From Candidatus Levybacteria bacterium RIFCSPHIGHO2_02_FULL_40_18 (GTDB taxonomy: Bacteria > Patescibacteriota > Microgenomatia > Levybacterales > GWA1-39-11): a stretch of DNA of 64,000 nt. The stretch covers positions 42,912 through 106,911 of the forward strand of contig MFOC01000002.1 of NCBI GenBank assembly GCA_001782235.1, written 5' to 3'. Both the position numbers and the translations under genes were made by a program. Shown one piece after another: positions 42,610 through 61,859 of the stretch. Positions within the stretch are counted from its first letter, which is position 1. The number at the start of each line of letters is the position of its first letter. The notes beneath the pieces were generated by a model. It worked only from the letters and a program-made list of their open reading frames with translations. It was not told where the DNA came from and made no database searches.

Positions 42610-42978
42610 TTAAGTATAAGTCTGGGAAGCCTTTATTAAACCATTGAGTAGCTTGTGAACTAAAATTATTGAATTCTCAATTATCAAGAAGTTTTCATTA
42701 GATACATATTCAAGTTCTTTCGAGATAATCAGTTGATTATGTAACTCTGTTACGGATCCTAACGCAATATAGTAAAATTGATTTTTTTCCTTCTTGTTTC
42801 TTCTTGAAAATCCCTCAGCAATATTACTAGTTACTGAAATAGCGCATCTTCGCATTTGTGTAGTAAGAGCGAATAATTCTTCCCTTGGAAATTGTTTAGT
42901 AATCTTATAAATTAACAGGACAAGCTTTATACCTTCCTGCCAAGCTATAAGGTCTTTAAAAGTGACGATTTTTGTCAT
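42610..42978 (-). CDS. four-helix-bundle protein (23S rRNA intervening-sequence-type, TIGR02436-like)
   Basis: 122 aa, all-helical, with a conserved-looking segment CAISVTSNIAEGFSRRNKKEKNQFYYIALGSVTEL typical of this family. Confidence 0.6.
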   Translation of the reverse strand: MTKIVTFKDLIAWQEGIKLVLLIYKITKQFPREELFALTTQMRRCAISVTSNIAEGFSRRNKKEKNQFYYIALGSVTELHNQLIISKELEYVSNENFLIIENSIILVHKLLNGLIKASQTYT

Positions 42979-43572: not shown

Positions 43573-43791
43573 TTAGTGCTTGCGGTTTTGAATTAAATAA
43601 ATGATGATCGCCGCCAGAAAAAATGCGGCGGCATAATAGGTAAGCCTTTGAGCTGTGAAGAAAACCCATGCTGAAAAAAGCGGAATCGCTAAAACTAAAC
43701 ATAAAAGTCCGACCAATGTAAACCATTCAGGTTTTCTCCTAAATAAAAGTCCCAAAAGTATAATCAAGAATATTAAATCTTGTGGTTTCAT
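43573..43791 (-). CDS. hypothetical small membrane protein (72 aa, 3 TM)
   Basis: Overlaps the upstream gene by 4 nt. Almost entirely hydrophobic. Confidence 0.3.
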   Translation of the reverse strand: MKPQDLIFLIILLGLLFRRKPEWFTLVGLLCLVLAIPLFSAWVFFTAQRLTYYAAAFFLAAIIIYLIQNRKH

Positions 43792-45675: not shown

Positions 45676-48285
45676 TTAATGGTTATACTTTTTAAGCATT
45701 CTTTTTAAAGTTTTTCTTTTTGAATACAATCCTGTAATTGTAATAAGTCCGATTGTTGTAGCGCTTATTCCTGCCCCTATTTTAAATGAATCCGGAGAAT
45801 AGTACATTCGGATAACATGCTTCCCTTTTTGAGGGATTATTACCCCCTTCACTAACCCGTCAGCCATATAGACGGTTACTGGCTTACCACCAAGTTCTGC
45901 CTTCCATCCAGGATAATATGAGTCGCTGAATTGCAGAACCGCATTATCTTTTTGAGATTCCATCTCAAAAATCAAATCTTCAGGGGTAAACTTTTGAATT
46001 GAAACAGTGCCGGGCGACGCATTCTGAGAAGAAAGTTTTTTAAAAACCTCGGATAAAGTTTCACCATTCCTATCAGAATAACTCCATGCTGGTTTATTTG
46101 TCCAAATGGATCCTGACCTTGCATGTAAGCTTTCGTATTCAATCCACTTACTTTTTAACTCTATAATTTTCCCAGTATTTTGATAATCGCCCTTTATTGT
46201 TTCAAAAGTATCCTTATTTCTAATTCGGGGGCCAACCAGTATTAGAATCGGAAAATTTTTGAGTTCTTCAATTGTGTAATCTTCAAGATCTTTTTTTAAA
46301 GAAAGAATTGTTATTTTTTTCTCGTCAAAATCGGGATGAAACATTAGTTGTTTTGCAATAAACCCAGAGAAGTCATTAAAACGATTGTCAGAGATAAGAA
46401 GAATAGGATTTGAAATGACAGTTATTTTAGGCAATACATTCCTATCGTAAAAGATTCCCCCTTCTCCTGTTGTTGCCATTGGAGCAAGGCGTGTTTCAAG
46501 ATAATCACATACACCATCCTCTGGTTTTTTTACTTCATCTTCAATAGTATTTTCAAGATTTATTTTCGGCAGGTCCAATCTGTTACATCCCTCATACTCA
46601 AAATATTCTCTTTGTTGCATAACAAATCTTGTATTTAAAACGCTGAATATTTTAAATCTTTTTTTTGTTACCTCTAAGCTATCTTGAGTGCTACCTTTTT
46701 GAATAACCGAATCTTCATAGGTTGGTACAACTTTGGCATAGAAAGGGGATAATGAATAAATATTACCTTCTAGCAAGTCTGCATTAGAAAGATTATAGAA
46801 ATCACTAGTAAAATTTGAGTATAATCTTCCCTCTGGTTTATAAACGTTAAAAACGTGAAGTAAAATGGCTAAGAGATTGGTTGTTTTTATGCTTGTATAG
46901 GGTGGATTATTATAATCTTGAGTTTTAATGATATTAATTGGTTCATTTTTAACTTTTTCTAGTAAATTGATACTATTTGTAAGACTTGCTGATTTAAAAG
47001 AGGTCTGAATAAATGTGACAGTGGAAAAAATGAGAATCATTCCAAAAATGTATCCAAAAAATCTAATTATAAAATGTCTTTTTTGTCTTATTAAAAGGTC
47101 AAGACCTAGAGCAACACAAACCATAAATGCAAATTGTATGATAATCATGAAACGAAAAGGATACTTGTTGGAATTGAAACCTGGAAGAAAATTATATATT
47201 AACGAGTAAAAATCAATTGGGACCTGATTAGCTAGATATCCCCATATGCCAATAATTAACAAGCCTAAAAATATTCCATGCAATAGAGATCGCTTTAATA
47301 AAAAATAGATAAAGCAAATAAGAACAAGGAAAATACCTATGTCATTTGCCCATTGTGTAAAAGAAGTAGTATGCCCAGGAGTAATAAAAAAATTACGTAA
47401 ACGATCCCAGAGCACAGAAAATGGCTGAATATCAACTTCTGATTCAGAAAGAGAAAGAAGACTTCTTGATGAAAGAGATCGGAATTCCAGTAATGGAATT
47501 AGTTTTACTGCTGAAATCCCAATGAATCCAACCCAAAAAACAACATTTAAAGATAAATATGAAAAAAAATGTTTGAGAAAATTTAAATTTCTCTCTTTTC
47601 TATTTTCCCACAAAAACCGCAAACCTAACATAAGCATTATCCATAAGAGCACTATTGAATTGTAGTGGAAAACATAATATGTGTTGTCAAAAAAATGCAA
47701 AGACATAATAATAGCTCCGATAATCATGTATAGGTAATTTTTTTTCATTATTCCAAGCCATACAAACATAACTGTAAGAGGAAGAAGCATAACTCCTATG
47801 AATTCTTCAAACCAACCATTTACACCAAACAAAAATGCATATTGGTTAGCCACATAAGGAATGCTAATAAGAAAACTCGTAGTCCGAGAAAGCTTTAGAA
47901 CTCTTAATAGAAAATAAAATGCTACAGATGCAAATGAAATATAAAAAAGTTCCATAAATCGAGCCGCTGATGCAGGATCATTAAAAAAAATAATAGTTAA
48001 CCAAGCAATAGGAGAAAAATGGTAACCGCTTGGATGACTTATTAATGACATACCCGATAAGAGAAACTGATTCCATAATGCAAATTGACCATAGTGAATA
48101 AGTGAGTATTTCATTACTATTGCAATATATCCGTTAAATCGTGCGGCATCTCCAAAAATAATTGTTTTAGGAGCTGTTATTAAAAATTGATAGGTAAATA
48201 CTGTGATCAAAACCAGCAATAGACCAATTAGAATATCTTTCAAATGACCAGAAGATAAATTTATTTTTTTAAAGATTTTTTTCAT
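45676..48285 (-). CDS. YfhO-like GT-C superfamily membrane protein (869 aa)
   Basis: N-terminal region FGDAARFNGYIAIVMKYSLIHYGQFALWNQFLLSGMSLISHPSGYHF resembles the YfhO family. ~14 TM helices, then a ~450-aa extracytoplasmic C-terminal domain. Confidence 0.5.
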   Translation of the reverse strand: MKKIFKKINLSSGHLKDILIGLLLVLITVFTYQFLITAPKTIIFGDAARFNGYIAIVMKYSLIHYGQFALWNQFLLSGMSLISHPSGYHFSPIAWLTIIFFNDPASAARFMELFYISFASVAFYFLLRVLKLSRTTSFLISIPYVANQYAFLFGVNGWFEEFIGVMLLPLTVMFVWLGIMKKNYLYMIIGAIIMSLHFFDNTYYVFHYNSIVLLWIMLMLGLRFLWENRKERNLNFLKHFFSYLSLNVVFWVGFIGISAVKLIPLLEFRSLSSRSLLSLSESEVDIQPFSVLWDRLRNFFITPGHTTSFTQWANDIGIFLVLICFIYFLLKRSLLHGIFLGLLIIGIWGYLANQVPIDFYSLIYNFLPGFNSNKYPFRFMIIIQFAFMVCVALGLDLLIRQKRHFIIRFFGYIFGMILIFSTVTFIQTSFKSASLTNSINLLEKVKNEPINIIKTQDYNNPPYTSIKTTNLLAILLHVFNVYKPEGRLYSNFTSDFYNLSNADLLEGNIYSLSPFYAKVVPTYEDSVIQKGSTQDSLEVTKKRFKIFSVLNTRFVMQQREYFEYEGCNRLDLPKINLENTIEDEVKKPEDGVCDYLETRLAPMATTGEGGIFYDRNVLPKITVISNPILLISDNRFNDFSGFIAKQLMFHPDFDEKKITILSLKKDLEDYTIEELKNFPILILVGPRIRNKDTFETIKGDYQNTGKIIELKSKWIEYESLHARSGSIWTNKPAWSYSDRNGETLSEVFKKLSSQNASPGTVSIQKFTPEDLIFEMESQKDNAVLQFSDSYYPGWKAELGGKPVTVYMADGLVKGVIIPQKGKHVIRMYYSPDSFKIGAGISATTIGLITITGLYSKRKTLKRMLKKYNH

Positions 48286-48316: not shown

Positions 48317-49246
48317 TCACAAATAAAGCTTTTTAATGAGGTACTGTGGTCTTTTTCTAATTTCATCGTAAATCCTCCATAAATATTCTCCTATGACTCC
48401 AAGCATCATCATAATTAATCCTGAGGCAATTAGTAATACAATCATTATAGGTGCATATCCTTGAAATGGGATATCGTTAAACAATCGTGCAAAAAGAACT
48501 ACTAATGCATATATAAATCCTAAAAATGACGTCATAACGCCGATAAAAGACATTATCCTTATTGGCAAATAAGAGGTATTGATAAATCCGTCAATAAAAT
48601 ACTTAATTTTCTTTGTGAAATTCCATTGAGATTTTCCTATTACTCTTTTTAACCGTTTATACTTTATGAAATAGGGTTCGTATCCTAACCAAAGAAGATC
48701 TCCCTGAATGAAAGAATTTCGCTCATCAAAGCTCAATACCCTTTTATATACCTCATTATCTACTAAAAAATAATCAAAACCTCCCGCCGGCATTTTTGGA
48801 ACAGCTACCTTAATTAGGCTATAAAATATTTTAGATGTAATTTTAGAAATAAAATCATCTTCTCTATCTATTCTTGCACAAGCAACCACTTTGTAACCCT
48901 TATTCCATTTTTCAATCATTTTTGTAATAAGGTCAGGCGGATCTTGTAAATCGGCCGAGATATGTATAAGAAGATTCCCCTTCGCATGCTGAAAACCTGC
49001 AAGTATTGCGGACTGCTGCCCAAAATTCCTTACAAAATCTATTACTGTAACATTCCTGTCAACTTTCTTTATTTTCAGCAACTCATTCAAAGAATTATCA
49101 TCCGAGCCGTCGTTGATAAATATAATTTCATAAGCATATCTGCTTAATAATTCTCTTAATACGGAGATAAGACTTATGTAGGTCTTGTACAATGTCCCTT
49201 CATTTCTATAAACAGGAACAACTACCGAAATCAGCTTTTTTTTCAT
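48317..49246 (-). CDS. GtrB/ArnC/DPM1-like polyprenyl-phosphate sugar synthase (GT2 with C-terminal TM hairpin)
   Basis: VVVPVYRNEGTL...INDGSDDNS...RNFGQQSAILAGF...ADLQDPP catalytic core plus two C-terminal TM helices ending GVIGEYLWRIYDEIRKRPQYLI. Confidence 0.8.
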   Translation of the reverse strand: MKKKLISVVVPVYRNEGTLYKTYISLISVLRELLSRYAYEIIFINDGSDDNSLNELLKIKKVDRNVTVIDFVRNFGQQSAILAGFQHAKGNLLIHISADLQDPPDLITKMIEKWNKGYKVVACARIDREDDFISKITSKIFYSLIKVAVPKMPAGGFDYFLVDNEVYKRVLSFDERNSFIQGDLLWLGYEPYFIKYKRLKRVIGKSQWNFTKKIKYFIDGFINTSYLPIRIMSFIGVMTSFLGFIYALVVLFARLFNDIPFQGYAPIMIVLLIASGLIMMMLGVIGEYLWRIYDEIRKRPQYLIKKLYL

Positions 49247-49252
49247 TGCAAC

Positions 49253-49849
49253 TTATAATTCCTGGTCTTTTAAAAATTTTATTTCTTTTTCAAGAAGTTC
49301 TCTCGATCTTTTTTTTATAAATTTAGCCGGAATACCACCGTAAATACAAAAACTTTTACAGTTATTCTTAATGAGTGAAAGAGCCCCAACGCAGACTCCG
49401 TCTTCAAGTATTATGTTTGGAAGAATTATGCTACCCGACCCAACTATAACATGCTTTCCAATATTAACATCTCCGTGAGTCACGTTGGTAAATTTTGGAT
49501 CAACTGTAGGATTTGTCATATACTCCCCTGAATAATCATCGCTGCTTGAATAGATAGAAACTCTTGATGAAATTGTTGAAAAATCACCAACAGTTATTTT
49601 CTCTTTGCCAATCAAAGAAGCAAATACAGAGATATGAATGTTTTTACCGATCCAAATACCTCCGCTCCCTGCTGATAAAACGCAAAAATCATCAATTCTG
49701 GAATTATCCCCTATTGAAATATTGCTCGTATTATGGAAAGAGGCCTTCGGTGAGATTTTTAGATTCTTGCCTAAATGCTTGAAGCCAAATTTATTTAATT
49801 GAGGTCTTGTTAAAAATGCCATATTATGATACTTCCTTCTGGGACGCAA
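49253..49849 (-). CDS. hexapeptide-repeat acetyltransferase (likely amino-sugar N-acetyltransferase)
   Basis: LbH repeats IGDNSRIDDFCVLSAGSGGIWIGKNIHI...IGKHVIVGSGSIILPNIILEDGVCVGALS. Gene overlaps the DegT aminotransferase gene. Confidence 0.75.
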   Translation of the reverse strand: MRPRRKYHNMAFLTRPQLNKFGFKHLGKNLKISPKASFHNTSNISIGDNSRIDDFCVLSAGSGGIWIGKNIHISVFASLIGKEKITVGDFSTISSRVSIYSSSDDYSGEYMTNPTVDPKFTNVTHGDVNIGKHVIVGSGSIILPNIILEDGVCVGALSLIKNNCKSFCIYGGIPAKFIKKRSRELLEKEIKFLKDQEL

Positions 49850-50912
49850 TAATTAGTTTCGCAATTAAATTCACTTCCTCTTTAGATAACGACTCATATA
49901 AAGGAAGGCACATAATTCTCCTTGCTATATCTTCCGACACTGGACAGCTATACTTTTTGACGTAATTTAATGTATTTAGAGATGGATAAAAATATCTTCG
50001 CGGAAAAATATTGTGCTTATTTAAACTGTTTTTTACTCTCAAAAGCTCGGATTCTGATTCAAATATGACTGGATAATACGAATAATTATATTCTAAATTC
50101 TCAAAGAGCCCCGGTCTGGTTAATTTAGCCCTCTTAAGTGCTTCATCGTAAAGTTTGGAGAGCTTTCTTCTCCTTGATATAAAGGTCTTAACTTTTGGGA
50201 GTATGGCAAGTCCCATAGCAGCATGGAATTCTGTATTCTTCCCATTTATACCTAATCCAAAAAAGGATTCCTCCCCGTTATGTCCAAAGTTGCGCATGTA
50301 AGAAATTTTATGAGCAAACTGGTCGTCTGAAGTGGTTATAGCTCCTCCCTCAACGGTATGAAAGATCTTTGTTGCGTGGAAACTTAGAATAGATATATCT
50401 CCAAAGTTAACCAAGGGAATTTTTTTATATTTAACACCAAATGCATGCGCGGCATCGTATATGATTTTAAGTTTGTTTTTCTTTGCAATCTTTCCAATCG
50501 CCTCAACATCGCAAGAATTTCCATATACGTGGACAGCCAATATCGCCTTTGTTTTTGAGGTAATGGCTTTTTGAATTTTTTTTACATCAATAGTTAATGT
50601 TCCTGGATCAATATCAACAAAAATCGGCCTACAATGCTCCCAAACTATTGACGAGGTTGACGCTACATAAGAGAAAGGCGTGGTTATTATCTCTCCATCT
50701 TTCAGGTCAAGAGCGCGTATAGCAATCTGCAAAGCGGTAGTACCATTGGAAACGAAAAATAAATGTTTAACCTCTAAATATTTTTTAAGTTTCTTTTCAA
50801 GACTAAGTACGTATTTACTGTGGTTTGTGATAAATCCGCTCTTCCATATCTCCTCAACATATTTGATATATTCTTTGATAGGCGGAAGATATGTTTTAGT
50901 TACGGTAATCAT
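49824..50912 (-). CDS. DegT/DnrJ/EryC1/StrS-family PLP-dependent sugar aminotransferase
   Basis: Conserved layout with NGTTALQIA, DAAHAFG and the Schiff-base lysine in SFHATK. Confidence 0.85.
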   Translation of the reverse strand: MITVTKTYLPPIKEYIKYVEEIWKSGFITNHSKYVLSLEKKLKKYLEVKHLFFVSNGTTALQIAIRALDLKDGEIITTPFSYVASTSSIVWEHCRPIFVDIDPGTLTIDVKKIQKAITSKTKAILAVHVYGNSCDVEAIGKIAKKNKLKIIYDAAHAFGVKYKKIPLVNFGDISILSFHATKIFHTVEGGAITTSDDQFAHKISYMRNFGHNGEESFFGLGINGKNTEFHAAMGLAILPKVKTFISRRRKLSKLYDEALKRAKLTRPGLFENLEYNYSYYPVIFESESELLRVKNSLNKHNIFPRRYFYPSLNTLNYVKKYSCPVSEDIARRIMCLPLYESLSKEEVNLIAKLIIASQKEVS

Positions 50913-50922
50913 CTTTTATACA

Positions 50923-51609
50923 TTATTTCTTTGCGATTATAAATACGGGCGAATTAATAAAAGTTGATTTTATTGCTATGGGGAATATTAAATGTAAGTG
51001 TTTACTGAGTTTATAAAAAAAGGGGAGAAAAGAAACTTGCCTAATAGATAACTTGGTAAATCCGTTTTTTTTAAATATTTTTTTCCATTCGTTAAGCGAT
51101 TTAACATTTATATGCGTGGGGTCGTTTGACAAATCAGTTTGGGCATTTGGTGTCGAACATATAAGTACACCGTTTTTTTTGAGTTTATTTTTCATATTGA
51201 TTATCGCATGTTCTGGATTTTTCAAATGCTCAATTACTTCAAAGGCTATAATTATATCAAAAGTCCCCATCAACGGTATACGTTTTTCTACGTCAAACAC
51301 GTGAAATGAGATGTTTTTTTTAAGTTTCTTTGCAAGTTTTTCTGCTTTACTAACTGCATATTTTGAAATATCCGAAGCATGAACTTCAAAACCGCGTTCG
51401 TAAAAAATATTACTCGCGCCTCCTATCGAACAGCCAATCTCCAAAACCTTACGGCCTACGCCATTTTTAAGGTCAACAAATTTATCAAGATAGGAAATCC
51501 AACCATAAAACCAATTTATAGAACGATCCAAATCCCCTTCTTTAAATTCGCCAACATTCCTCGTATAATAACCAGTGAAATACCCCTTTTCAAATTTGCG
51601 CCTTTGCAT
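50923..51609 (-). CDS. class I SAM-dependent methyltransferase
   Basis: Motif I VLEIGCSIGGAS and motif II region. Clear paralog of 55522..56211. Confidence 0.75.
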   Translation of the reverse strand: MQRRKFEKGYFTGYYTRNVGEFKEGDLDRSINWFYGWISYLDKFVDLKNGVGRKVLEIGCSIGGASNIFYERGFEVHASDISKYAVSKAEKLAKKLKKNISFHVFDVEKRIPLMGTFDIIIAFEVIEHLKNPEHAIINMKNKLKKNGVLICSTPNAQTDLSNDPTHINVKSLNEWKKIFKKNGFTKLSIRQVSFLPFFYKLSKHLHLIFPIAIKSTFINSPVFIIAKK

Positions 51610-52049
51610 TAAGCCTCGTGTAAACTTACTCTTTCAATTATTAGTTGTCTTATAACATAAGTTAGGATAAAAACATACGCCGCAAATCCCAAAACGTCGG
51701 AAGCAAATTCAAGCTCAATAACTGTAAAGGGAATGGCAAGAATAAACATTGCAATTCCAAAAATGAGTGTTCTTTTATTGGTTATGTATTCCCTAAGGAG
51801 GAGATTAGCAAGAATCCATAGTATCGCAGCTATGTAGTAATAATACTTGTCAATAATATTAAAGTAAGGAAGAGTATTAAGAAACACTAAGAACTGATAG
51901 GTAAAAACCAAAAATACAATTTGAGGCAAATAATCCCTAAAGAACTTAGTAGGTGTCCTAAATGACTTTTTTATTTTTTCCGAAAGATTGTCCAACATAC
52001 TCCAACAATAATAGTGAAAATTGTAGCTACCGTCAAATACGCACCCCAC
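51609..52049 (-). CDS. small polytopic membrane protein (possible GtrA-like flippase; start probably at internal Met)
   Basis: 3-4 hydrophobic helices in ~130 aa. Overlaps the 3' end of the upstream gene. Functional guess comes from context only. Confidence 0.25.
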   Translation of the reverse strand: MGCVFDGSYNFHYYCWSMLDNLSEKIKKSFRTPTKFFRDYLPQIVFLVFTYQFLVFLNTLPYFNIIDKYYYYIAAILWILANLLLREYITNKRTLIFGIAMFILAIPFTVIELEFASDVLGFAAYVFILTYVIRQLIIERVSLHEA

Positions 52050-55000
52050 ATGTATATCTTTTGAGGATAGTAATATAAGTTAACTTTTTTTTGTATACCA
52101 TCTTTTACATACCACCCATTTGTGAATCCTCCTGAGGGGTAGTGCGCATCAGTATCGAATGGTATACATTCTTTACCTTCCTCACAGAAACGCCAGAATT
52201 TTCCATAGCTTTCGCGCATAACTAAAGTAACCGGATCTTTGCTTGGCTTAACATTTATATTGTATTCAACTGGACTTATCTTCTCAAAGTCTGAAACATA
52301 TTCATTTTCTTGCGTTGCTCTTTGTTTTTGATAAAAGACTACCACAGGAAATGAAATTTTATAGAGAGCAACATCCTGAATTTCTATTATATTCTGACCA
52401 GGATCAATAAATCTTAAGTCTTCTCTTCCTTTAATACCTTGCTCCTGACTAAGAGACACGAACCCATTACATAGGTTTATTTTTATTCTATCTCCTACTG
52501 GCCTTACTAATTCATTATGAGTTGCCCAAGCACGACTATTAGGGATAAATGATTCCCGTATCCTGAGTCTTGGAATTTTCACTTTTGGATCATTAACATA
52601 GAAACTTAAATCATTTTTATCAGTTAAGTTTCTATAACTAAATGAAACTATGTATTCAGCTCCCAAGGTCTCAAGATTGTTAACTGAATAAGTCATGCAT
52701 TTATTTCTACTTTCAAGATTCATGGAAATCTTATTGCCGTCTCTAATAATCCCTCCTGTACCATCAGGAAACTCAGGTTTTACAGAGGAAATAAGATTAG
52801 ATAGTGTTGAGTCTTGAAAAGCCAGATGAACTTGATTTTGTGTAAAGTTCATTTTTCCAAAATATAACCAATCACTTACCTCCGCAATCGGAGCAAGGGA
52901 TACATTGTTTTCTTGTACTGATATTCTTGAGCCCGATGAATCTCCCACGGGATTTGAAAAGCTATTCTTCTTAGCGTATATATCGTAGCTTCCCGTTTTA
53001 GGAAGATCAAAAATATATCTTTTATCTATTATGTCTTGCGTAACCCATTGTTTTTGGTCTGTAATTTTTTTAATTTCCAATAACTCATCGTAAGCTAACG
53101 AAAAACCTTTTCTATGATCTATATTAAGTATTGGATTATCAAAAATCGAATCAATAAGCGTAACCTCTTGTAATAAGTGTCCGTTAATAGTTCGCGCTAA
53201 TCTATTTTCTTCTTTACCGCTAACGCTCCAACGCTTTGATACCAAATCTTTGAGTTCGACGATTGCTTTATTGTATCCATCTACTGCTCTTTGCAAGAAT
53301 TGTAATTTTTCTTTTGAATCTATCATCCATTTTGCTTCCACAATTCTTCTATCAGCGATAGTTAGATAATGGTTAACTAGTGAGGAAAAGTCACGTGCTT
53401 GTTCGCGAATCCTATCTTCTCGATATAAAATTAAAGGATAAAGAACAGAACCAGGTAGAATTTTAGGATTGTAATAAGTGAATCCAAAAAACTCTTCTTT
53501 TAAGTTACACTGTATACATTCTGGAGCAACAAATATATCTGTTGCTTCATTCGCGTAATATGAAAATTTTTTAGGTTCAAGATCAGCCATAAAGAGAGGA
53601 CTTGTTGGATCAAACCCAGGGAAAGAAACAATGTTTTTTAATTCTCCCTGTAAAAAATTAAGCTTTGGAGTGATTGTTATTCTATACGATCTATCTGTAT
53701 CCGCGATGTCATACACTTTCCATTTCCCAAATGTTTTTTCAAGCTTAAACTTAGGATTATTATCAAGAATCTTCCCATAGATCGCAGGATTAGTTGTCCC
53801 CCATGAAATGTTCTGCCAATCAAAATCTTCATGTACTATGACTCCATCAATTGCAAATACTTCAGTAAAGTCAGTAAAACTTTTAATATCCTCATGAAGC
53901 AAAGCGCTATACATTTGTTTCATTAAAAATCTTTCACTCTGAGGAACCAAAAAAGTATTCTGAACATAAGAATTTTTAGCCATTAGACTATTTATTGGGG
54001 CTGCGCTCCAATATCCCCATTGATATGCGATATATCCCGTATCGCTTATCTCAGGAACTATAAGATATCGCCTTGTCGGATTTTGTTGATTTACCCATTT
54101 ACCAAAATCGAAAACATATTGTGGTACGTTAACGCGGGTTGAAAGCTCTTTTCCTGGCTCACTCGAATAATCAAAAAAAGATCCGCTTATGATTGGGTAA
54201 TGGTATAGTACATAAAGCACGGTAAATAGACCTATTAAAACAAAATGAATGGGGGGAATAAATATTTTTTTTGTTTTAGCAAACTGCTCAAATCGCGAAA
54301 ATATCACATCAAGAGTAAAACCAATTAGAATACCGTACACAAACCATTGAACATAATCGAATTTGTAAAAATTACTTCTAAATATTGCGAATCCGGGAAT
54401 ATATAGAATAAAGAATTCATAGATAATACCAAGTTGTGACTTAGGACCAGCGGCAAAAATTAAAGTCACTAAGCTAATTAAAACAAAAAGATAAATAAAG
54501 AATTTTTCTCTTTTTATTTTTACAAGCAACAAAGACCCGTAAGCCGCAAGAGGAAAAAAGAAGCTTGCAACTATTAAAAACGGATTTAATAAAAAGTTTC
54601 CCGCATATGAGTGATATGCATTTAAATACCACTCTGGTATTCCCTGACCTCTAAAAAGGTTTATAAATGTAGATCCTTTTGAAAGATATTCTGACCAAGC
54701 CAGTGCCCCTTGCGCACCCCCTGCAAGAGCTAAATCCCGAGAGTAAAAACCCAAAATATAGTAGATGTAGGGGAAAAACCAATATGCACTGAGCAAAAGG
54801 TACAAAATACCTACTCCAAAAAAATAGAGTATTGTTTTTCGGAGCGTCTGAAAACTCCTTTCAATAAAATTGAAGTACAAAGCTGAGAGTACCAAAAAGA
54901 TTATAAGCCCTCCATAGAGAGGAAAACTTCCACCGCCATTCAAAATACCAAGCGTTATACCTGTCCCCAAAACAGATTTTAAAAGACTTATCTTTTTTGT

Positions 55001-55603
55001 GAAATAAGAAAAAGTAAAATAAGCGACTAGTGGGAGTGCCGCGTAGATGCTAAATTTAGTTTGCTCAGCAACAAACCATGCCTGTAGCAAATAAAAATTG
55101 ATCATGTAAACCAAAGAGGCTATAAGAGGCAAATATTTTTTGTCTGGCCAGAATTTGTATGCAAAAAAATACATGGTAAAACCGGGAAGCGTGAACCAGA
55201 AAATAAAATTTATAAGCTGATCAGCTTTCAATGAAAAACCAATCCAGACTAAAAAGGCTTGTAATCCATGTATAGGTAACGCACCCAAAAGTCCATAGCT
55301 CTGGTCGGTTCCAATTCCCAGACGTTGCGACCATACGGAAAACCTGTCAAGAAAATGGGTTATTGGATCAAAGGGAAAACCTGCGTCGTGCCCAAACAAC
55401 ATCGTTTGACCGGGAAACCATAAAAGAGGTAGAAGCCCAATAAGAAAGACAATTAAAAGATCAAATAATATTCTTTTCCTCATTAAAAGAAGCTGAAGAT
55501 TAAGCATTATACCAATAAATCTCACTTTTTCGCAAAGATAAATACTGTCGAAAGAAACCAAGTAGTCGAAGAAGCAAACGGCAATATAAGATTTAATCTC
55601 CAA
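51971..55603 (-). CDS. 1210-aa polytopic membrane protein with large extracytoplasmic domain (GT-C / YfhO-AftD-Emb-like)
   Basis: ~16 TM helices in the first ~480 aa, including the loop GQTMLFGHDAGFPFDPITHF. Then a ~700-aa soluble domain and a C-terminal TM anchor. Confidence 0.45.
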   Translation of the reverse strand: MEIKSYIAVCFFDYLVSFDSIYLCEKVRFIGIMLNLQLLLMRKRILFDLLIVFLIGLLPLLWFPGQTMLFGHDAGFPFDPITHFLDRFSVWSQRLGIGTDQSYGLLGALPIHGLQAFLVWIGFSLKADQLINFIFWFTLPGFTMYFFAYKFWPDKKYLPLIASLVYMINFYLLQAWFVAEQTKFSIYAALPLVAYFTFSYFTKKISLLKSVLGTGITLGILNGGGSFPLYGGLIIFLVLSALYFNFIERSFQTLRKTILYFFGVGILYLLLSAYWFFPYIYYILGFYSRDLALAGGAQGALAWSEYLSKGSTFINLFRGQGIPEWYLNAYHSYAGNFLLNPFLIVASFFFPLAAYGSLLLVKIKREKFFIYLFVLISLVTLIFAAGPKSQLGIIYEFFILYIPGFAIFRSNFYKFDYVQWFVYGILIGFTLDVIFSRFEQFAKTKKIFIPPIHFVLIGLFTVLYVLYHYPIISGSFFDYSSEPGKELSTRVNVPQYVFDFGKWVNQQNPTRRYLIVPEISDTGYIAYQWGYWSAAPINSLMAKNSYVQNTFLVPQSERFLMKQMYSALLHEDIKSFTDFTEVFAIDGVIVHEDFDWQNISWGTTNPAIYGKILDNNPKFKLEKTFGKWKVYDIADTDRSYRITITPKLNFLQGELKNIVSFPGFDPTSPLFMADLEPKKFSYYANEATDIFVAPECIQCNLKEEFFGFTYYNPKILPGSVLYPLILYREDRIREQARDFSSLVNHYLTIADRRIVEAKWMIDSKEKLQFLQRAVDGYNKAIVELKDLVSKRWSVSGKEENRLARTINGHLLQEVTLIDSIFDNPILNIDHRKGFSLAYDELLEIKKITDQKQWVTQDIIDKRYIFDLPKTGSYDIYAKKNSFSNPVGDSSGSRISVQENNVSLAPIAEVSDWLYFGKMNFTQNQVHLAFQDSTLSNLISSVKPEFPDGTGGIIRDGNKISMNLESRNKCMTYSVNNLETLGAEYIVSFSYRNLTDKNDLSFYVNDPKVKIPRLRIRESFIPNSRAWATHNELVRPVGDRIKINLCNGFVSLSQEQGIKGREDLRFIDPGQNIIEIQDVALYKISFPVVVFYQKQRATQENEYVSDFEKISPVEYNINVKPSKDPVTLVMRESYGKFWRFCEEGKECIPFDTDAHYPSGGFTNGWYVKDGIQKKVNLYYYPQKIYMWGAYLTVATIFTIIVGVCWTIFRKK

Positions 55604-56211
55604 TTAAGCCTATATAAATATGGCGGGAAAAAAGTTACTCTTTTAATTCGTACATTAGAAAAACCTGCCTCTAAAAATAATCCTCTCCATTCTTCGTGAT
55701 TTTTAACACTTATGTGCGTTGGGTCCTGAATTTTATAGTCAAAATCATTTTGCGTTGAGATAATTGCCCATCCCTTAGGCTTTAAAGTGTTATATATATT
55801 TTTAATTGCAAGTTCGGGCCATTCCAAATGTTCTAAGACATCAAAAGCCATAACATAATCAAATTTTTCTTTAAGCGGTTTTTGAATATCGTGCGTTTTA
55901 AATGTGATTGAGGGATGAATTTTTTTAGCACGTTCTATGGCAAACTTTGAAATATCAGTTGCGGTTACTTTAAGCCCGTATTCATCAAGAACAATTGCGG
56001 CAGCACCATAGGCGCAACCAAATTCTATAATGCTTTTCCCTTTGGAATTTTTAATCGGAACAAATTTGTTCACATAATTTAAACCTCCTCTGAACCAATT
56101 GGATAACTCCCTATCCCTTTTTTCACTAAATTCTCCCACTTCGCTTTTATAAAAACCTTCAAAGTAAGTATCTTCAAACTTCTTATTTTTTCTCATATCG
56201 AACTTATTCAC
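55522..56211 (-). CDS. class I SAM-dependent methyltransferase (paralog of 50923..51609)
   Basis: IIEFGCAYGAAA motif I. Alignable along its full length with the other MTase, e.g. the shared C-terminal hydrophobic tail FIFAKK. Confidence 0.75.
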   Translation of the reverse strand: MNKFDMRKNKKFEDTYFEGFYKSEVGEFSEKRDRELSNWFRGGLNYVNKFVPIKNSKGKSIIEFGCAYGAAAIVLDEYGLKVTATDISKFAIERAKKIHPSITFKTHDIQKPLKEKFDYVMAFDVLEHLEWPELAIKNIYNTLKPKGWAIISTQNDFDYKIQDPTHISVKNHEEWRGLFLEAGFSNVRIKRVTFFPPYLYRLNWRLNLILPFASSTTWFLSTVFIFAKK

Positions 56212-58432
56212 TTATCGCAACTGAGCCAAAAAGTCTCTCAATGGGTGAACCCTCTAGATAAGTACCTGAAACAACTAACCTAACAACTTTATCATTAAAT
56301 TTTACAAAGTATTGTGTTTGCCAACCGCTCTTAAATTCAATTGCATCATTAAAGTGATATGTATCAAAATATATTTTCTTTAAGGTTACAGTCCCCGCTT
56401 CATTTATAACTGTTTTTATTTCCTGCATATCAAAAGTGGGCAATACTGAAATAATGCTTAATTGAGCGGTAAATCCAGGATTGCTCAGTGTATATATTTT
56501 TAAAATTTTAGGATCTTGAGTGCTTATCTGCTCCTCTATTTTAGCTCCTTGCGGATACCTGAAGGATAATTTCGTAAAAGAGTCTTCAAAAACCAGCCAA
56601 TCAGTATCATTTTTTGAATTTTTCATAAAATTCTCCATTTCTTCTCTTACGGACTTGGTAATATCGTTAAACTTAATTTTTTTTGAATCATAATAAAAAC
56701 CATAAACGTCATTAACGGAAAAAGTATTGGCAAGAAGAGCTTCTGATAGCGTTTTTTTGGTATTATAAAATCCAAATCCCCTGTTTTCTGAAAACAAATA
56801 ACCTTGTGGTTTTGCATCCAAAATAAATGTATCAAAAAAACTATCTGGTAGTGGATTCTTATCATAGTAGACAATTGTCAATATCTGAGGGAAACTCGTT
56901 TGGAAAGGAAGTATTGTACCGTATGCGCCTCCCCCATCTGTCTCGGCATAGAAAACAGCTTTTTGTGGTAACACCGGAAGATGCTGTTTTAATTGTGTAA
57001 TAATCTGCCGCCTTGGGATTCCCGTAACATCAACAATGGTATGCATATTCGCTTGAAATACGCTGTTATTGTTAATAAACCAAGCAAGAAACAGCAAACC
57101 TAAAACCCACAAAGAATTCAGAGAAATTCGCGTTATTTTTTTGATTATCCTGACTATAAATTCAGAAATAAATAAGAGCAAAAAAGGAAAAACTATCGCA
57201 GCTCCAATGGAAGGCATATAATAATGCCTTGAATCAAAAAGATCTGTCCCCCACGACGGAATACGTAAAACATTTAAAACCAGAGGGAGCGTACTCGCTA
57301 TTATGAGTAAAAATCCTAAAAGAACAGTTTGGGCCTCAGAATTTTTCTTGGATTGCATGTATTTACGTACCATAACAATAATGAGCACAACTATTCCAAG
57401 AGAAATCAGATAAAATAATAAATTTTGTCCCGGCCCATATACAAAAAACAAACGATTTTGGGCTCGCGACGCTGGCTCGCCAGGATATAAGTAATAAATA
57501 AACGGGCTTATCGTCTGCATGACAGAAAGGATAGTCGCCCCGGGGATAAAAACTTGCGAAAGCATACTTAAGGGAAATGAAATAGTTCTGTAGATAATAA
57601 GAGAGATATCAAAACCGCTACTTGCAGTAGCAACTTCTGCTTGATGTGTTAATTTCATGCTAACCTCTATCCATTGATTTATCCACACATACAAAGCTGG
57701 CAACACAAAACGAAAAGGAATAAAAAATGCTAACGGGATAGAATAGATTTTAATTAAAAATTTTACTGGGAAAACTCTTTTTTCCATAAAAATCATAATT
57801 GGAATTATCAAAATAAGAACAACTGCTATTTCTTTAGTTAGTAGATCAAGCAATAAAAATATGGAAGAAATAAAAAGATATTTTTTTTTCTTTGTACTTA
57901 GGGCTTTCTTCAAAAATAAAATGCTTAATATAAAAAAGGTAATTGAAAGAACATTTTGGCCATAAAATGCAGCCCATGTAACTGCATGCATAGGTATCGC
58001 CGACAATGCAAAAAAGACTCCTCCCACAATTGCAATAATGGTATTTTTGGATTTAAGTTTCCCATTTTTTAATAATTCCTGAATAAAAAGAAATACCAAG
58101 AAACTATTAATTGAGTGAAGCAATATAGATATAAATGCATATGGTGTAAAATTGACTCCAAAAAATCGAGTGTTTAGAAAAAAGATTTCCTCTCCTATTG
58201 GAACAACATGTTGCCCCTCAGATAATACTACCGCATCTGTAACTGATTTTATTAAAGGAAGTAACGGACCCCAAGGATCTTTTGTTAAAGGAAAGTAATG
58301 TGTAAAATGGAACCATTCATCCGCTTCAAAGTAAGAATTAAAGAGATCTTTGTATGCTGTAAAAACAAGGATAAGGAAAAAGATAAGTATAATTTTTTCG
58401 TTGAAAATAATTTTCTTAAACTTCTTTTTCAT
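56204..58432 (-). CDS. 742-aa GT-C-like polytopic membrane protein with C-terminal soluble domain
   Basis: ~13 TM helices. First loop has the acidic motif YFEADEWFHF. ~200-aa C-terminal extracytoplasmic domain. Confidence 0.45.
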   Translation of the reverse strand: MKKKFKKIIFNEKIILIFFLILVFTAYKDLFNSYFEADEWFHFTHYFPLTKDPWGPLLPLIKSVTDAVVLSEGQHVVPIGEEIFFLNTRFFGVNFTPYAFISILLHSINSFLVFLFIQELLKNGKLKSKNTIIAIVGGVFFALSAIPMHAVTWAAFYGQNVLSITFFILSILFLKKALSTKKKKYLFISSIFLLLDLLTKEIAVVLILIIPIMIFMEKRVFPVKFLIKIYSIPLAFFIPFRFVLPALYVWINQWIEVSMKLTHQAEVATASSGFDISLIIYRTISFPLSMLSQVFIPGATILSVMQTISPFIYYLYPGEPASRAQNRLFFVYGPGQNLLFYLISLGIVVLIIVMVRKYMQSKKNSEAQTVLLGFLLIIASTLPLVLNVLRIPSWGTDLFDSRHYYMPSIGAAIVFPFLLLFISEFIVRIIKKITRISLNSLWVLGLLFLAWFINNNSVFQANMHTIVDVTGIPRRQIITQLKQHLPVLPQKAVFYAETDGGGAYGTILPFQTSFPQILTIVYYDKNPLPDSFFDTFILDAKPQGYLFSENRGFGFYNTKKTLSEALLANTFSVNDVYGFYYDSKKIKFNDITKSVREEMENFMKNSKNDTDWLVFEDSFTKLSFRYPQGAKIEEQISTQDPKILKIYTLSNPGFTAQLSIISVLPTFDMQEIKTVINEAGTVTLKKIYFDTYHFNDAIEFKSGWQTQYFVKFNDKVVRLVVSGTYLEGSPIERLFGSVAISE

Positions 58433-59455: not shown

Positions 59456-60307
59456 TTAGGATAAAGTGAATAGATATCTTTTTAGTGCATCTTTCCAGGA
59501 AGGAAGTGTAACTCCAAGTTTTGCTGCACTGGTATTTTTAAGCGCAGAGAACATAGGACGTCTTAAATCTCCCTCACTCCGTCTGATAGGAATTACTTTT
59601 GTATTCTTATTTGATGCTCTAATTATTTCCATTGAAAATTCGGCAAGTGAACAATATCCTTCATTAACCAAGTGATAAATTCCAGAATTTGGTTTTTTTA
59701 ATATAAGTCTTAAAGAGGCAATAGCCAGGTCTTTTGCATAAGTTGGAGAAACGATTTGATCAGATGCTACCTCAAGCTCATCATTCTCTTTTGCCTGTTT
59801 TAAAATCGTTAATACAAAATTTCCACCTTTTGATCTACTACCTGATAATCCTCCGTACAAATAGGCAGTCCTAATAATTAATGACTTACTGCAATACGTT
59901 TTTGCGCAATATTCTCCCGCAAGTTTTGAGATTCCATACAATTGTAATGGATTTGCAGCATCATCTTCTAAGTATGGCTCGCCTTTTCTACCATCAAAAA
60001 CGTAATCAGTGCTATAGTGTATTAACCGTGAGCCATTATCTTGGCAAATCTGAGCAAGATTTTTAATAGCTATGGAATTAATTATGAAAGCTTTATCAGG
60101 AAACTCTTCACAGTCGCGAACTACATGAAAGGCGGAAGCATTTATAACAACGTCTGGTTTTATTCTTTTGACAAACTGAGAAATTTTACCTTTGTCTTCG
60201 ATATTAAGTTCCTTACTTGAAAATGCCGATACTTTATATTTCTTTCCCAACTCTATGTTTAGCTCGTGACCTAATTGACCATTTTTCCCAATTAATAAGA
60301 ATTTCAT
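59456..60307 (-). CDS. rmlD: dTDP-4-dehydrorhamnose reductase RmlD
   Basis: MKFLLIGKNGQLG...PDVVINASAF...HYSTDYVFDG...PYLEDD...LYGISKLAGE matches RmlD throughout. Confidence 0.8.
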   Translation of the reverse strand: MKFLLIGKNGQLGHELNIELGKKYKVSAFSSKELNIEDKGKISQFVKRIKPDVVINASAFHVVRDCEEFPDKAFIINSIAIKNLAQICQDNGSRLIHYSTDYVFDGRKGEPYLEDDAANPLQLYGISKLAGEYCAKTYCSKSLIIRTAYLYGGLSGSRSKGGNFVLTILKQAKENDELEVASDQIVSPTYAKDLAIASLRLILKKPNSGIYHLVNEGYCSLAEFSMEIIRASNKNTKVIPIRRSEGDLRRPMFSALKNTSAAKLGVTLPSWKDALKRYLFTLS

Positions 60308-60834
60308 CTTTTAGAAAGTGGCCATGAGGCATCCTTTTCTGATAAGAGCGGCTTATCTATTGGCCATTGAATCTTAAAAAACGGATCGTCCCATCTTATG
60401 CCTTTTTCATATTCTGGAGAATAATATTCAGTAACGAAATATTCAACGACCGTATCTTTTTCAAGCGTCTGGAATGCATGACCGCATCCCCTTGGAACAA
60501 GGAGCATTTTTTTATTTTTTTCCGACAATTCCACTCCTAACCATTTACCAAATGTCTTGGAATTACGACGTAAATCTATGGCAACGTCAAAAACTTTACC
60601 ATGCAAGCACTGGATTATTTTGTTCTCCGCGTGAGGTTTTATTTGGTAATGAATTCCTCGAATTGTACCTTTTTGTTTTGTGAATGATCTATTAATATGA
60701 ACTATATCAAATTCTATCTTATTTTTTTTAAGAACCTCTTTAGCATATATTCTCATGAAGTATCCGCGATCATCTACTTTTGGTTCAGCTTCAATAACGT
60801 ACACACCGCGAATTTTTGTTTTGTGAATCTTCAT
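60304..60834 (-). CDS. rmlC: dTDP-4-dehydrorhamnose 3,5-epimerase RmlC
   Basis: Cupin with DDRGYF and RGIHYQ motifs. 176 aa. Overlaps rmlD by 4 nt. Confidence 0.85.
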   Translation of the reverse strand: MKIHKTKIRGVYVIEAEPKVDDRGYFMRIYAKEVLKKNKIEFDIVHINRSFTKQKGTIRGIHYQIKPHAENKIIQCLHGKVFDVAIDLRRNSKTFGKWLGVELSEKNKKMLLVPRGCGHAFQTLEKDTVVEYFVTEYYSPEYEKGIRWDDPFFKIQWPIDKPLLSEKDASWPLSKR

Positions 60835-61859
60835 GTTGTGCGGAATAAATTCTTATCAATTCTGTTATTCTTCTGCAAGCGGCGTAAAACTGCAAGTCGA
60901 GTATATCTCCCTTCCTCAAAATCTTTTTTTGAAAATTTACTCTTTTTGAGAGCATAAATCATATCCTTAACAGATTTTGAAAGAGGCCATTTTTGACGGA
61001 CGTTGGGAAAGTGTTTCTTAAAGAAACCAAACTTGACTCTATAGCTTCTTGAATCAGCGCCATGTTCCCCTGTGTAGACGGCCGAGCAAAAGGGTAGCTC
61101 TTTTTTTATCACATCAACAAGATCCCTCACTTGAAAATTATTTTCATTAAATCCAATATTTACAATTTCCCCATTCAAAGATATGTCTTTTGTCTTAAGG
61201 AATTCAATAAAAATGTCAGTAAGGTCTCGAACATCAATCAAGGGCCTCCACGGTGTACCATCGCTCATAATTCGTATCTGGCCATAAGCAAGTGCTGTTG
61301 TGACTAAATTATTTACGACTAAATCATTTCTAAAACGAGGAGAAAAACCATAAACTGTCGAGTTTCGCAGAAGGCCAACAAAAAAATCTGAGGCAGCTAG
61401 TTTTTTAAGAGCTTGTTCGGTTTTTATTTTTGAGCGAGCATAGGCCGTCAATGGATTCACTCTCGATTTTTCATCCACTATTCCGTTTTCAGCTATACCG
61501 TAAACACTCGCGGAGGAAGAAAAAATAAATTTTTTAACTCCTGCTTTTTTTGCTAATTTTGCTAATCGAATTGAAGCCTTATGGTTTATTTCTTCTGTCA
61601 ATTTTGGGTCTATCTCTCCCATTGGATCATTAGATAAAGCACTGAGGTGAATAATTGCATCAACTCCTCTCAGGTCAGAAAGGCTTACATGACGAATATC
61701 CTTTGTGATTTTTTTATAGGAGGGTATGGAATCGCCGGGCAAAAGGTTGTTTTCAAAAAAACCCGTATCTAATCCAATTACATTGTGACCTTCTTTAACT
61801 AATTTCCTGACCAGAACCGATCCAATATATCCTCTATCACCGGTAACCAAAACTTTCAT
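60831..61859 (-). CDS. NAD-dependent epimerase/dehydratase (extended SDR)
   Basis: N-terminal VLVTGDRGYIGS Rossmann motif. ~340 aa. Confidence 0.7.
   Translation of the reverse strand: MKVLVTGDRGYIGSVLVRKLVKEGHNVIGLDTGFFENNLLPGDSIPSYKKITKDIRHVSLSDLRGVDAIIHLSALSNDPMGEIDPKLTEEINHKASIRLAKLAKKAGVKKFIFSSSASVYGIAENGIVDEKSRVNPLTAYARSKIKTEQALKKLAASDFFVGLLRNSTVYGFSPRFRNDLVVNNLVTTALAYGQIRIMSDGTPWRPLIDVRDLTDIFIEFLKTKDISLNGEIVNIGFNENNFQVRDLVDVIKKELPFCSAVYTGEHGADSRSYRVKFGFFKKHFPNVRQKWPLSKSVKDMIYALKKSKFSKKDFEEGRYTRLAVLRRLQKNNRIDKNLFRTT

Follow-up and report, generated by a model that had tools for sequence, protein, structure and literature searches.

Within a 64,000-nucleotide (nt) stretch of the Candidatus Levybacteria bacterium RIFCSPHIGHO2_02_FULL_40_18 genome (contig MFOC01000002.1, positions 42,912 to 106,911; hereafter the window), we find a small S-adenosylmethionine (SAM)-dependent methyltransferase (MTase), MT_B, encoded directly upstream of a giant membrane protein predicted to be a distant relative of the GT-C glycosyltransferase AftD, an arrangement that recurs across genomes. 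The recurrent unit consists of the MTase, the AftD-like GT-C, a small transmembrane (TM) protein and usually a short paralog of the GT-C, and its gene order is conserved whether loci are approached from the MTase side or from the GT-C side. The window holds exactly one copy of this block, with MT_B in the canonical slot. A first-pass annotation of the same DNA had proposed two duplicated modules, each pairing a MTase with a giant GT-C-like protein. That finding is real and more than chance but was misdescribed: the pairing holds, whereas the duplicated module does not. Window positions are counted from its first letter, and features are collected in Table 1.

The two open reading frames (ORFs) first marked as MTases, 50923-51609 (MT_A) and 55522-56211 (MT_B), are full-length paralogs, as had been claimed. 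BLASTP aligns them end to end with 98 of 228 residues identical (43%, E 2e-61). Both far exceed the gathering cut-off (GA) of 27 bits for Pfam Methyltransf_23, with scores of 85.8 and 79.5, and Methyltransf_11, Methyltransf_12, Methyltransf_25 and Methyltransf_31 also exceed GA for both copies. SAM motif I reads VLEIGCSIGG in one protein and IIEFGCAYGA in the other. In the family alignment E57, G59, G63 and D80 are invariant and D106 is nearly so (at least 90% of 24 members). An AlphaFold2 (AF2) model of MT_A reached a predicted local distance difference test score (pLDDT) of 89.4 and gave more than 1200 PDB MTase matches at E ≤ 1e-3. Judged by sequence, both are intact class I (Rossmann-fold) SAM enzymes. 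Their hydrophobic C-terminal tail was considered as a membrane anchor and rejected, being the last beta-strands of the core sheet in the AF2 model (pLDDT 82-97).

These MTases belong to a small, narrow and uncharacterised family: a search of 1.84 billion cluster representatives gave 83 members at E ≤ 1e-30. The family carries the motifs FExxYFxGxY, NWFxGW and DPTHINVK, a C-terminal PFFYRF segment and a conserved N-terminal pair of aromatic helices. Scores against the family hidden Markov model (HMM) fall into tiers: true members lie above 240 bits, a second tier, mainly from Bathyarchaeia, lies at 96-146 bits, and generic MTases follow. The second-tier archaeal relatives always stand next to a family 2 glycosyltransferase (GT2). 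In the Bathyarchaeia loci (L014-L021, 100-125 bits; for example L021 9998-11437) this is a GT2 of 247-261 amino acids (aa) that follows the MTase, and the pairs sit among housekeeping genes (SecY, cytidylate kinase, radical SAM, DNA ligase), not in a glycan island. Another second-tier member, P0285 (L095 5557-6570), has an N-terminal domain of 3-4 TM helices; its locus also holds a formyltransferase, a DegT aminotransferase, a GT2, a 593-aa membrane protein and another MTase.

The nearest sequence and fold neighbours of the family are small-molecule MTases at 15-20% identity, namely the phosphoethanolamine N-methyltransferases, ToxA, XrdM, UbiG and CouO/NovO, with the sugar O-methyltransferases RebM and AtmM lower in the list. 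A head-group N-methylation role could be read from this, in which the MTases, like NodS or the phosphoethanolamine N-methyltransferases, act on an amine, for example that of a DegT-made 4-amino-4,6-dideoxyhexose or of a phosphoethanolamine-type substituent. The best PDB sequence match is indeed a phosphoethanolamine N-methyltransferase (5wp5, E 5e-19), Pfam NodS is matched just above its GA of 24 (24.9 and 30.7 bits), and MT_A lies directly before a DegT gene. However, the NodS matches are overlapped by much stronger generic MTase families, and the NCBIfam NodS equivalog model, whose cut-off is 300, returns 23.4 and 28.7 bits. The gene after DegT encodes an N-acetyltransferase, which probably acetylates the amine, and MTases occupy the canonical slot in loci without a nearby DegT (L090, L091). 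We consider N-methylation quite improbable.

The large protein encoded after MT_B passes the Pfam GT-C_AftD family (PF11847) marginally, at 27.1 bits against a GA of 26. The same family is present in most of its homologs, with 41.9 bits in the L041 homolog, and NCBI names such homologs, which occur widely in Patescibacteria, as alpha-(1->3)-arabinofuranosyltransferase family or DUF3367 proteins. An AF2 model built with 31 homologs (mean pLDDT 86.6) predicted about 11 N-terminal TM helices, one C-terminal TM helix and, between the membrane parts, an extracytoplasmic region of about 700 aa made of a long helical bundle and several beta-sandwich domains. Foldseek searches of the PDB with this model gave strong matches only to the mycobacterial AftD cryo-EM structures 6wby, 6w98 and 6wbx (E 4e-16 to 4e-15, TM-score 0.41-0.46). 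The next match of any kind had E 6e-5, the next GT-C (DPY19) E 6e-3, and carbohydrate-binding module folds E ~0.03 or weaker. The protein family also has an invariant GHD...DR motif near the N-terminus. Based on the predicted fold, we describe the large protein as a distant AftD-like GT-C; we do not call it an AftD ortholog and make no claim on arabinose.

The other large membrane proteins of the window relate to this one at different depths. The first-pass annotation had treated the 1210-aa ORF (the AftD-like gene in its longest form) and the 742-aa ORF as a duplicated pair. BLASTP between them gave a best E of 2.8, and kinship appears only at the profile level (hhalign probability 91%, E 1e-6, about 300 columns). 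The true paralog of the 1210-aa ORF is instead the 628-aa ORF, which aligns with the large protein by BLASTP at 24.8% identity over 412 aa (E 1e-11). At the family level it matches residues 82-639 of the large protein with hhalign probability 100% (E 2.8e-40, 472 columns), so that by sequence it is clearly a paralog of the N-terminal GT-C domain. An 869-aa protein is related in turn to the 628-aa family (hhalign probability 97%, E 1e-10). The 742-aa protein is a candidate for a different, PMT_2/ArnT-like family: PMT_2 scores 24.0 bits (GA 26.1), 3 of 12 homologs match at E ≤ 0.01, about 10 TM segments precede a soluble C-terminus of about 280 aa, and an N-terminal loop motif, YFEADEW (YFxxDEW, with Y34-F35...D38-E39-W40 invariant), is typical of GT-C enzymes. 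PDB searches with the single sequences of the 1178-aa form of the large protein and of the 742-aa protein gave no match, and neither did searches with the 742-aa and 628-aa family profiles.

The association between MTase and AftD-like protein was then followed across genomes. In 19 of 20 independent loci outside the window, the gene immediately before the AftD-like one encodes a family MTase. The 20 loci, numbered with the prefix L, comprise 10 with true family members from a one-genome-per-species collection, six reached through MTase homologs, three reached through AftD-like homologs, and L096. Nine of the 10 collection loci have the MTase followed by an AftD-like gene of 1105-1153 aa, and in most complete ones the MTase stop and the AftD-like start overlap by 4 nt. 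An ORF of 104-131 aa with 3-4 TM helices comes after the AftD-like gene in these loci, usually ahead of a protein like the 628-aa one, and a homolog of the 344-aa GT2 of the window and a 742-like protein usually lie upstream of the block (GT2 at 38-45% identity in L004, L006, L007, L008 and L012). The loci found through MTase homologs (L084, L085, L087, L089, L090 and L091) have the same gene order. All three loci fetched through AftD-like homologs (30-51% identity) carry a family MTase (287-309 bits) directly upstream and the small ORF directly downstream.

Other loci extend or vary this layout. In L041, where the AftD-like gene is 21% identical, a 4-TM ORF that overlaps it and then a 628-like gene still come next. 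Homologs of the 628-aa protein come after the small ORF in eight loci (L004, L006, L007, L010, L011, L012, L041 and L085), and in L022 one comes after a different ORF. L087 (10001-18525) has one family MTase, then two tandem pairs of an AftD-like gene (1168 and 1170 aa) and a small ORF (132 and 147 aa). Upstream of the block, the 344-aa-type GT2 gene often has its start overlapped by the gene of a second, different class I MTase (~230 aa, 53-62 bits with the family HMM), as at L004 6167-6865, L085 5861-6556 and L089 3024-3710; this MTase is absent from the window and L084, the two loci with an extra family MTase. Some loci among L004-L013 come from Third Party Annotation metagenome-assembled genomes titled 'uncultured Gammaproteobacteria'. 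Their gene content matches the patescibacterial loci, and that taxonomy may be a placeholder.

This conserved adjacency bears out the proposed functional tie between the MTase and a giant GT-C-type protein. It also speaks to the possibility that the MTase is an unrelated housekeeping enzyme, acting on rRNA, tRNA or protein and hitch-hiking in the operon. Class I MTases are promiscuous in annotation, and weak PrmA, HemK and Trm9-type matches are present. Against this, 19 of 20 loci keep the two genes adjacent over a range of 28-73% identity, fusions join the MTase to RmlD and, in a relative, to a GT2, and the family is narrow. The first-pass annotation had named kinship with rRNA or protein MTases together with missing co-occurrence as what would undo its proposal; we found likeness to small-molecule MTases and co-occurrence. 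Synteny refutes the housekeeping reading in practice, and we regard it as extremely unlikely.

The small ORF follows the AftD-like gene in nearly all loci, the 21%-identical L041 included. Its family matched no Pfam family and no PDB entry. Mycobacterial AftD has 16 TM helices in one chain, 11 plus 5, and the AftD-like protein does not, with about 11 N-terminal helices and one C-terminal helix. Together with the four of the small ORF, however, the sum is 16. By this arithmetic and the topology, the small 4-TM protein may be a detached equivalent of the AftD C-terminal TM bundle, and we infer from topology only that the gene could have been split between TM12 and TM13. A search of a 5.8-billion-sequence protein database found no small ORF fused to an AftD-like protein. 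The N-terminal TM region of P0285 was also compared with the small-ORF profile, and the match was not significant (6.5 bits, hhalign probability 1%).

The window itself departs from a repeated unit. Both MTases and the 1210-aa and 742-aa polytopic ORFs lie in one tight minus-strand array, as originally noted. MT_B directly precedes the AftD-like gene; MT_A does not adjoin it, as the 129-aa ORF separates MT_A from the 1210-aa gene. In place of a repeated functional unit there is one block copy and an extra MTase. A recent tandem duplication of the MTases was rejected: each copy is 71-73% identical to orthologs elsewhere and 43% identical to its partner. Because each has closer orthologs in other genomes than in the window, the divergence is old, and MT_A is by sequence an anciently diverged extra paralog. 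Members of the MT_A subfamily fill the canonical slot in other genomes (for example L085, 57% identity). In the window MT_A heads an inserted amino-sugar sub-module of DegT aminotransferase, acetyltransferase, ArnC/PgfS-like candidate polyprenyl-phosphate GT2 and the 869-aa GT-C relative. An MT_A ortholog holds the same position in L084 (GCA_040960765.1), and the two-MTase layout is common to both loci.

Gene boundaries also had to be revised. The overlaps at 55522-55603 and 56204-56211, which had been taken as signs of tight translational coupling, are longest-ORF artefacts, produced when ORFs are extended to TTG/GTG codons further upstream. On identical contigs, independent gene calls agree with the family alignments in placing the start of MT_B at ATG 56196, 7 nt past the stop of the 742-aa gene. 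Family alignments and independent gene calls likewise start the large protein at ATG 55483 (1170 aa) or 55507 (1178 aa), 14-38 nt past the MT_B stop. True overlaps lie elsewhere, between the 344-aa GT2 and the 742-aa gene (17 nt) and between the large protein and the small ORF (28 nt), and the small ORF stop meets the MT_A start in a TAATG junction with one base in common.

Fusions and neighbours of the MTase point toward its substrate. P0267 joins an RmlD-like domain (140 bits) to a true family MTase, and its gene fills the canonical slot, with an AftD-like gene directly after it. In L041, upstream of the AftD-like gene, the MTase domain is fused to a GT2 homologous to the 344-aa GT2 (31% identity, E 1e-40). 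An RmlD/epimerase-type gene occurs in practically every related locus. The RmlD-MTase fusion, the MTase-GT2 fusion and the RmlC and RmlD genes of the operon suggest cytoplasmic methylation of a rhamnose-type precursor, though none of them proves it, and O-methylation of a deoxyhexose, as first proposed, is plausible on this sequence context. SAM is cytoplasmic. Because no signal peptide or TM helix was detected in the MTases and SAM is cytoplasmic, the MTases would act before their substrate crosses the membrane.

Our best explanation, which as a whole we hold with moderate confidence, is that 15 genes on one strand, at 43.8-62.6 kb of the window, form a cell-envelope glycan operon within a larger glycan island of ~24-64 kb, and that the MTase is a cytoplasmic enzyme dedicated to the AftD-like pathway, modifying a 6-deoxyhexose-type unit on a nucleotide or polyprenyl carrier that is then used outside the membrane. 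In this mechanism, the MTases would act in the cytoplasm on a small sugar-bearing precursor, most likely a rhamnose-type 6-deoxyhexose carried on a nucleotide or polyprenyl group. The methylated unit would be flipped across the membrane, and the AftD-like GT-C would use the flipped unit on the external side of that membrane.

Several observations weigh against this explanation. A sequence profile of the large protein reached PDB AftD only at E 0.02, so that the link to AftD consists of the fold and the marginal Pfam score, and the split of AftD into two genes found no sequence support. Among the 20 loci, L009 is the single exception, with a family MTase but no AftD-like neighbour. The ratio of MTase to AftD-like genes varies, being 2:1 in the window and L084 and 1:2 in L087, and there is therefore no fixed one-to-one module. 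The nucleotide-sugar genes vary as well, from a rhamnose type in the window to a heptose type in L093 and L094, while the trio of MTase, AftD-like gene and small ORF is constant; therefore, the substrate may not be the variable sugar. On the side of the enzyme, PDB neighbours of the MTase model are generic (TM-score 0.6-0.67), and in an NCBIfam scan the MTases reached no curated family cut-off, that of a sugar MTase included, with all matches far below.

In the form first proposed, the two MTase and GT-C modules would each couple deoxyhexose O-methylation to membrane transfer as chain-length or capping devices. Methyl caps do end the chains of rhamnans in the WsaE and WbdD systems (PMC2943079), RmlC and RmlD are both present in the window, and MTase-GT2 fusions occur in related loci. 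Yet the membrane partners are not paralogous modules, MT_A does not adjoin a GT-C, and the overlaps cited for the coupling are artefactual. Known cap systems also need a Wzm/Wzt ATP-binding cassette (ABC) exporter with a cap-binding domain, and none turned up among the ORFs scanned across the window, the glycan island included. The chain-capping idea gains no specific support because this cap-reading exporter was not found in the ORFs scanned, and capping modules are in our view distinctly improbable.

The minus-strand array comprises 15 closely packed ORFs on the ORF map of the window, running from 62637 to 43788 (Table 1).

Table 1. Genes of the minus-strand array and its divergent neighbour, in order of transcription, with the evidence for each assignment
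Feature	Coordinates	Strand	Evidence and remarks
Sugar-1-phosphate nucleotidylyltransferase	61864..62637	-	First gene of array; NCBIfam glucose-1-phosphate cytidylyltransferase 258 bits, below cut-off 300
Short-chain dehydrogenase/reductase (SDR)-type nucleoside diphosphate (NDP)-sugar epimerase/dehydratase	60831..61859	-	Pfam Epimerase/GDP_Man_Dehyd (precomputed, identical contig); GalE-like 100.7 bits, below cut-off
RmlC, dTDP-4-dehydrorhamnose 3,5-epimerase	60304..60834	-	TIGR01221 190.2 bits, above equivalog cut-off 155.75
RmlD, dTDP-4-dehydrorhamnose reductase	59456..60307	-	TIGR01214 269.2 bits, above equivalog cut-off 224.05
GT2 glycosyltransferase, 344 aa, one C-terminal hydrophobic segment	58416..59450	-	Pfam Glycos_transf_2 100.1 bits
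742-aa polytopic protein, PMT_2/ArnT-like GT-C candidate	56204..58432	-	Sub-threshold Pfam match, TM segments, loop motif
MT_B, class I SAM methyltransferase, 224 aa from ATG 56196	55522..56196	-	Slot directly upstream of AftD-like gene
AftD-like GT-C, 1170 aa (alternative start 55507)	51971..55483	-	Pfam GT-C_AftD, AF2 model, fold match
Small 4-TM protein, 129 aa, invariant PYxN motif	51609..51998	-	Family alignment
MT_A, paralogous class I SAM methyltransferase, 228 aa	50923..51609	-	Pfam, BLASTP against MT_B, AF2 model
DegT/DesI-type NDP-4-keto-6-deoxyhexose aminotransferase	49824..50912	-	Pfam DegT_DnrJ_EryC1; NCBIfam DesI 229.6 and PseC 213.1 bits, both below cut-off
Hexapeptide-repeat acetyltransferase	49253..49822	-	Pfam Hexapep; WbbJ-like 58.6 bits, below cut-off
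GtrB/ArnC/PgfS-like GT2, 309 aa, polyprenyl-phosphate glycosyltransferase candidate	48317..49246	-	NCBIfam PgfS and ArnC matches
869-aa polytopic protein, remote GT-C relative	45676..48285	-	hhalign; homolog in L084; no Pfam family above GA
628-aa short paralog of AftD-like N-terminal GT-C domain, MmpA-like architecture	43788..45674	-	hhalign, BLASTP; usual last gene of block
dTDP-glucose-4,6-dehydratase-like gene	62671-63762	divergent from array	Transcribed away from the array

The 309-aa GT2 matches PgfS (213.7 bits, E 3e-63, cut-off 500) and ArnC (165.6 bits, E 1e-48, cut-off 529) over its full length and has two C-terminal TM segments at residues 229-290. Beyond the array, which forms its distal part, the glycan island opens near 24 kb with genes for a DUF4012 protein, an initiating phosphoglycosyl transferase (Bac_transf) and a ManC-like enzyme, and it also holds several family 4 glycosyltransferase (GT4) and GT2 genes and two further GT-C-like proteins. 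The first 19 kb of the window are a cell-division/cell-wall (dcw) cluster. Genes of the pathway to decaprenylphosphoryl arabinose (DPA), namely a UbiA-type decaprenylphosphoryl-5-phosphoribose (DPPR) synthase and DprE1/2, did not turn up among the ORFs scanned. An Rfam scan of the whole window gave no RNA family. A consensus scan of 43.4-63 kb was uninformative, with promoter-like sites fewer than in shuffled sequences and terminator-like sites at chance. The identical contig was found in Rifle aquifer and other groundwater metagenomes, and named homologs of the window proteins come from Candidatus Roizmanbacteria, Levybacteria and Daviesbacteria, which makes a Microgenomates-group member of the Candidate Phyla Radiation the most likely source.

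Further genes of the glycan island were observed on the minus strand. A PMT_2-like membrane protein of 491 aa (33226-34701) scored 25.8 bits, just below the GA of 26.1. A 1079-aa protein with about 20 hydrophobic segments (36561-39800) matched no Pfam family, gave a weak IctB/O-antigen-ligase-like match (33 bits) and scored 56 bits with the 742-aa family HMM; this may be a GT-C-like protein in doubled or extended form. In all, the island encodes at least six GT-C-like proteins in its 33-58 kb part. An IS200-like Y1 transposase (35768-36433; 24.9 bits, GA 23) lies within the island, adjoining an unannotated plus-strand ORF (34761-35705). A bAvd-like four-helix-bundle protein (42610-42978) sits between a 177-aa N-terminal GT4 fragment (43003-43536) and a full-length GT4 (41414-42580). 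It scored 113 bits with TIGR02436 and only 27 bits with the Avd model of diversity-generating retroelements (cut-off 80), and a similar bAvd-like gene is found inside the L085 glycan island.

Giant GT-C proteins are common in genomes of the Candidate Phyla Radiation (CPR), and to our knowledge none has been characterised. Their probable role is to assemble the surface glycans by which these episymbionts contact their hosts. A compact conserved block with a dedicated, narrow MTase family is a concrete target for biochemical reconstitution. A literature search for DUF3367/AftD in CPR gave no paper combining the terms. So far as the searchable literature shows, the block of MTase, AftD-like GT-C, 4-TM protein and short paralog is undescribed, while GT-C-based envelope glycan assembly with an accessory MTase is already a known kind of system.

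Known systems share single parts with the block. The phosphoethanolamine N-methyltransferases, ToxA, XrdM, UbiG and NodS have the same Rossmann-type fold and SAM motifs and two N-terminal helices with invariant aromatics, but the four family motifs FExxYFxGxY, NWFxGW, DPTHINVK and PFFYRF have no counterpart in them. With GtrA/B/C, ArnC/ArnT and S. mutans PgfS/PgfM the array shares a PgfS/ArnC-like GT2, the 309-aa protein, followed by a large GT-C-like protein; the genes before that GT2 encode an aminotransferase and an acyltransferase, another parallel to the Arn pathway. Its scores fall below the equivalog cut-offs, however, a flippase of the GtrA family was not detected (the small ORF matches no Pfam family), and none of those systems includes a dedicated SAM MTase. 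In WsaE of the Geobacillus S-layer glycan and WbdD of E. coli O8/O9a, a SAM MTase accompanies assembly of a rhamnose or 6-deoxyhexose glycan. The N-terminal MTase domain of WsaE 2-O-methylates rhamnose, and tight gene overlaps are present in these clusters too (PMC2943079). The MTase-GT2 fusion of L041 has the layout of WsaE. Those systems are Wzm/Wzt-dependent and fuse the MTase to glycosyltransferase or kinase domains, whereas the MTases of the window stand alone as single-domain proteins of 224-228 aa, paired with an extracytoplasmic GT-C.

The closest known arrangement is the aftD-tmaT-mmpA-mtrP locus of Mycobacteriales, compared through C. glutamicum cgp_3161-3168 and M. tuberculosis Rv0224c-Rv0236c, with MtrP as Rv0224c/NCgl2764. 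MtrP, MmpA and AftD are essential or near-essential in corynebacteria and mycobacteria, and the C-terminal TM bundle of AftD binds a cytoplasmic partner in mycobacteria. This envelope locus has aftD, tmaT, mmpA, two glycosyltransferase-like genes and the putative MTase gene mtrP (PMC8698533; bioRxiv 10.64898/2026.07.31.741767). MmpA is homologous to the first 11 TM helices of AftD (PMC8698533), and the substrate of MtrP is unknown (PMC8698533; bioRxiv 10.64898/2026.07.31.741767).

The MTase of the CPR block could accordingly be a counterpart of MtrP, needed for AftD/MmpA-type membrane machinery. The Mycobacteriales genes lie in one conserved locus and their mutants phenocopy each other (PMC8698533; bioRxiv 10.64898/2026.07.31.741767), the window has the same three component types, and the trio is constant while the sugar genes vary. 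P0285 shows a TM-anchored relative of the MTase. In P0263 an N-terminal segment is read from its motif as a Trm112-like zinc ribbon, and MtrP is predicted to need a Trm112-like partner (bioRxiv 10.64898/2026.07.15.738315). On the other side, the window lacks a TmaT-type acyltransferase and mycolates are absent from these organisms, the Mycobacteriales genes are several ORFs apart and lack translational coupling, and the 628-aa protein scores 33.8 bits over 60 residues with NCBIfam MmpA (NF053599), against a cut-off of 210. It does share one trait of MmpA, as a short membrane protein that is paralogous to the N-terminal TM domain of the AftD-like protein and whose gene lies close to the AftD-like one. 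We hold an MtrP-like accessory role to be rather unlikely.

P0263 (526 aa) is an observation in its own right. Three parts are fused in it: the N-terminal CxxC...CxxC segment (the part read as Trm112-like, for which Pfam gives no match at E ≤ 1e-3), another class I MTase and a true member of the MTase family. The arrangement recalls the pair of MtrP and a Trm112-like protein (ML1347) that is predicted in mycobacteria.

A bolder proposal, which we hold to be unlikely, would make the MTase, the AftD-like GT-C, the 4-TM protein and the MmpA-like paralog one membrane complex. The small protein would replace the AftD C-terminal TM bundle, the MTase would be docked as a cytoplasmic subunit, and the CPR block would represent a minimal, ancient, glycan-directed version of the MtrP-MmpA-AftD system. 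If this were true, the MtrP substrate would be a lipid-linked sugar and not a mycolate intermediate. A simpler, mycolate-free version could separate the glycan role from the mycolate role of the MtrP-MmpA-AftD machinery, only if the MTase homology is true.

Whatever the standing of these proposals, the two loci can be compared part by part. In both, a giant AftD-type GT-C bears carbohydrate-binding beta-sandwich domains, and a shorter protein (MmpA in Mycobacteriales, the 628-aa protein in the window) is paralogous to its N-terminal GT-C domain. Both loci also encode cytoplasmic glycosyltransferases and a soluble putative class I SAM MTase, MtrP being likened by component type. In contrast to the Mycobacteriales locus, the CPR genes are contiguous and often translationally coupled, no TmaT acyltransferase is present and the organisms make no mycolates. 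The AftD-like protein differs from AftD in having a single C-terminal TM helix, and a 4-TM protein is encoded separately after it. In sequence, the resemblance to AftD and MmpA is marginal, and the likeness to AftD is essentially structural. Because the same three component types occur in both, the CPR block plausibly works in a manner similar to the Mycobacteriales locus.

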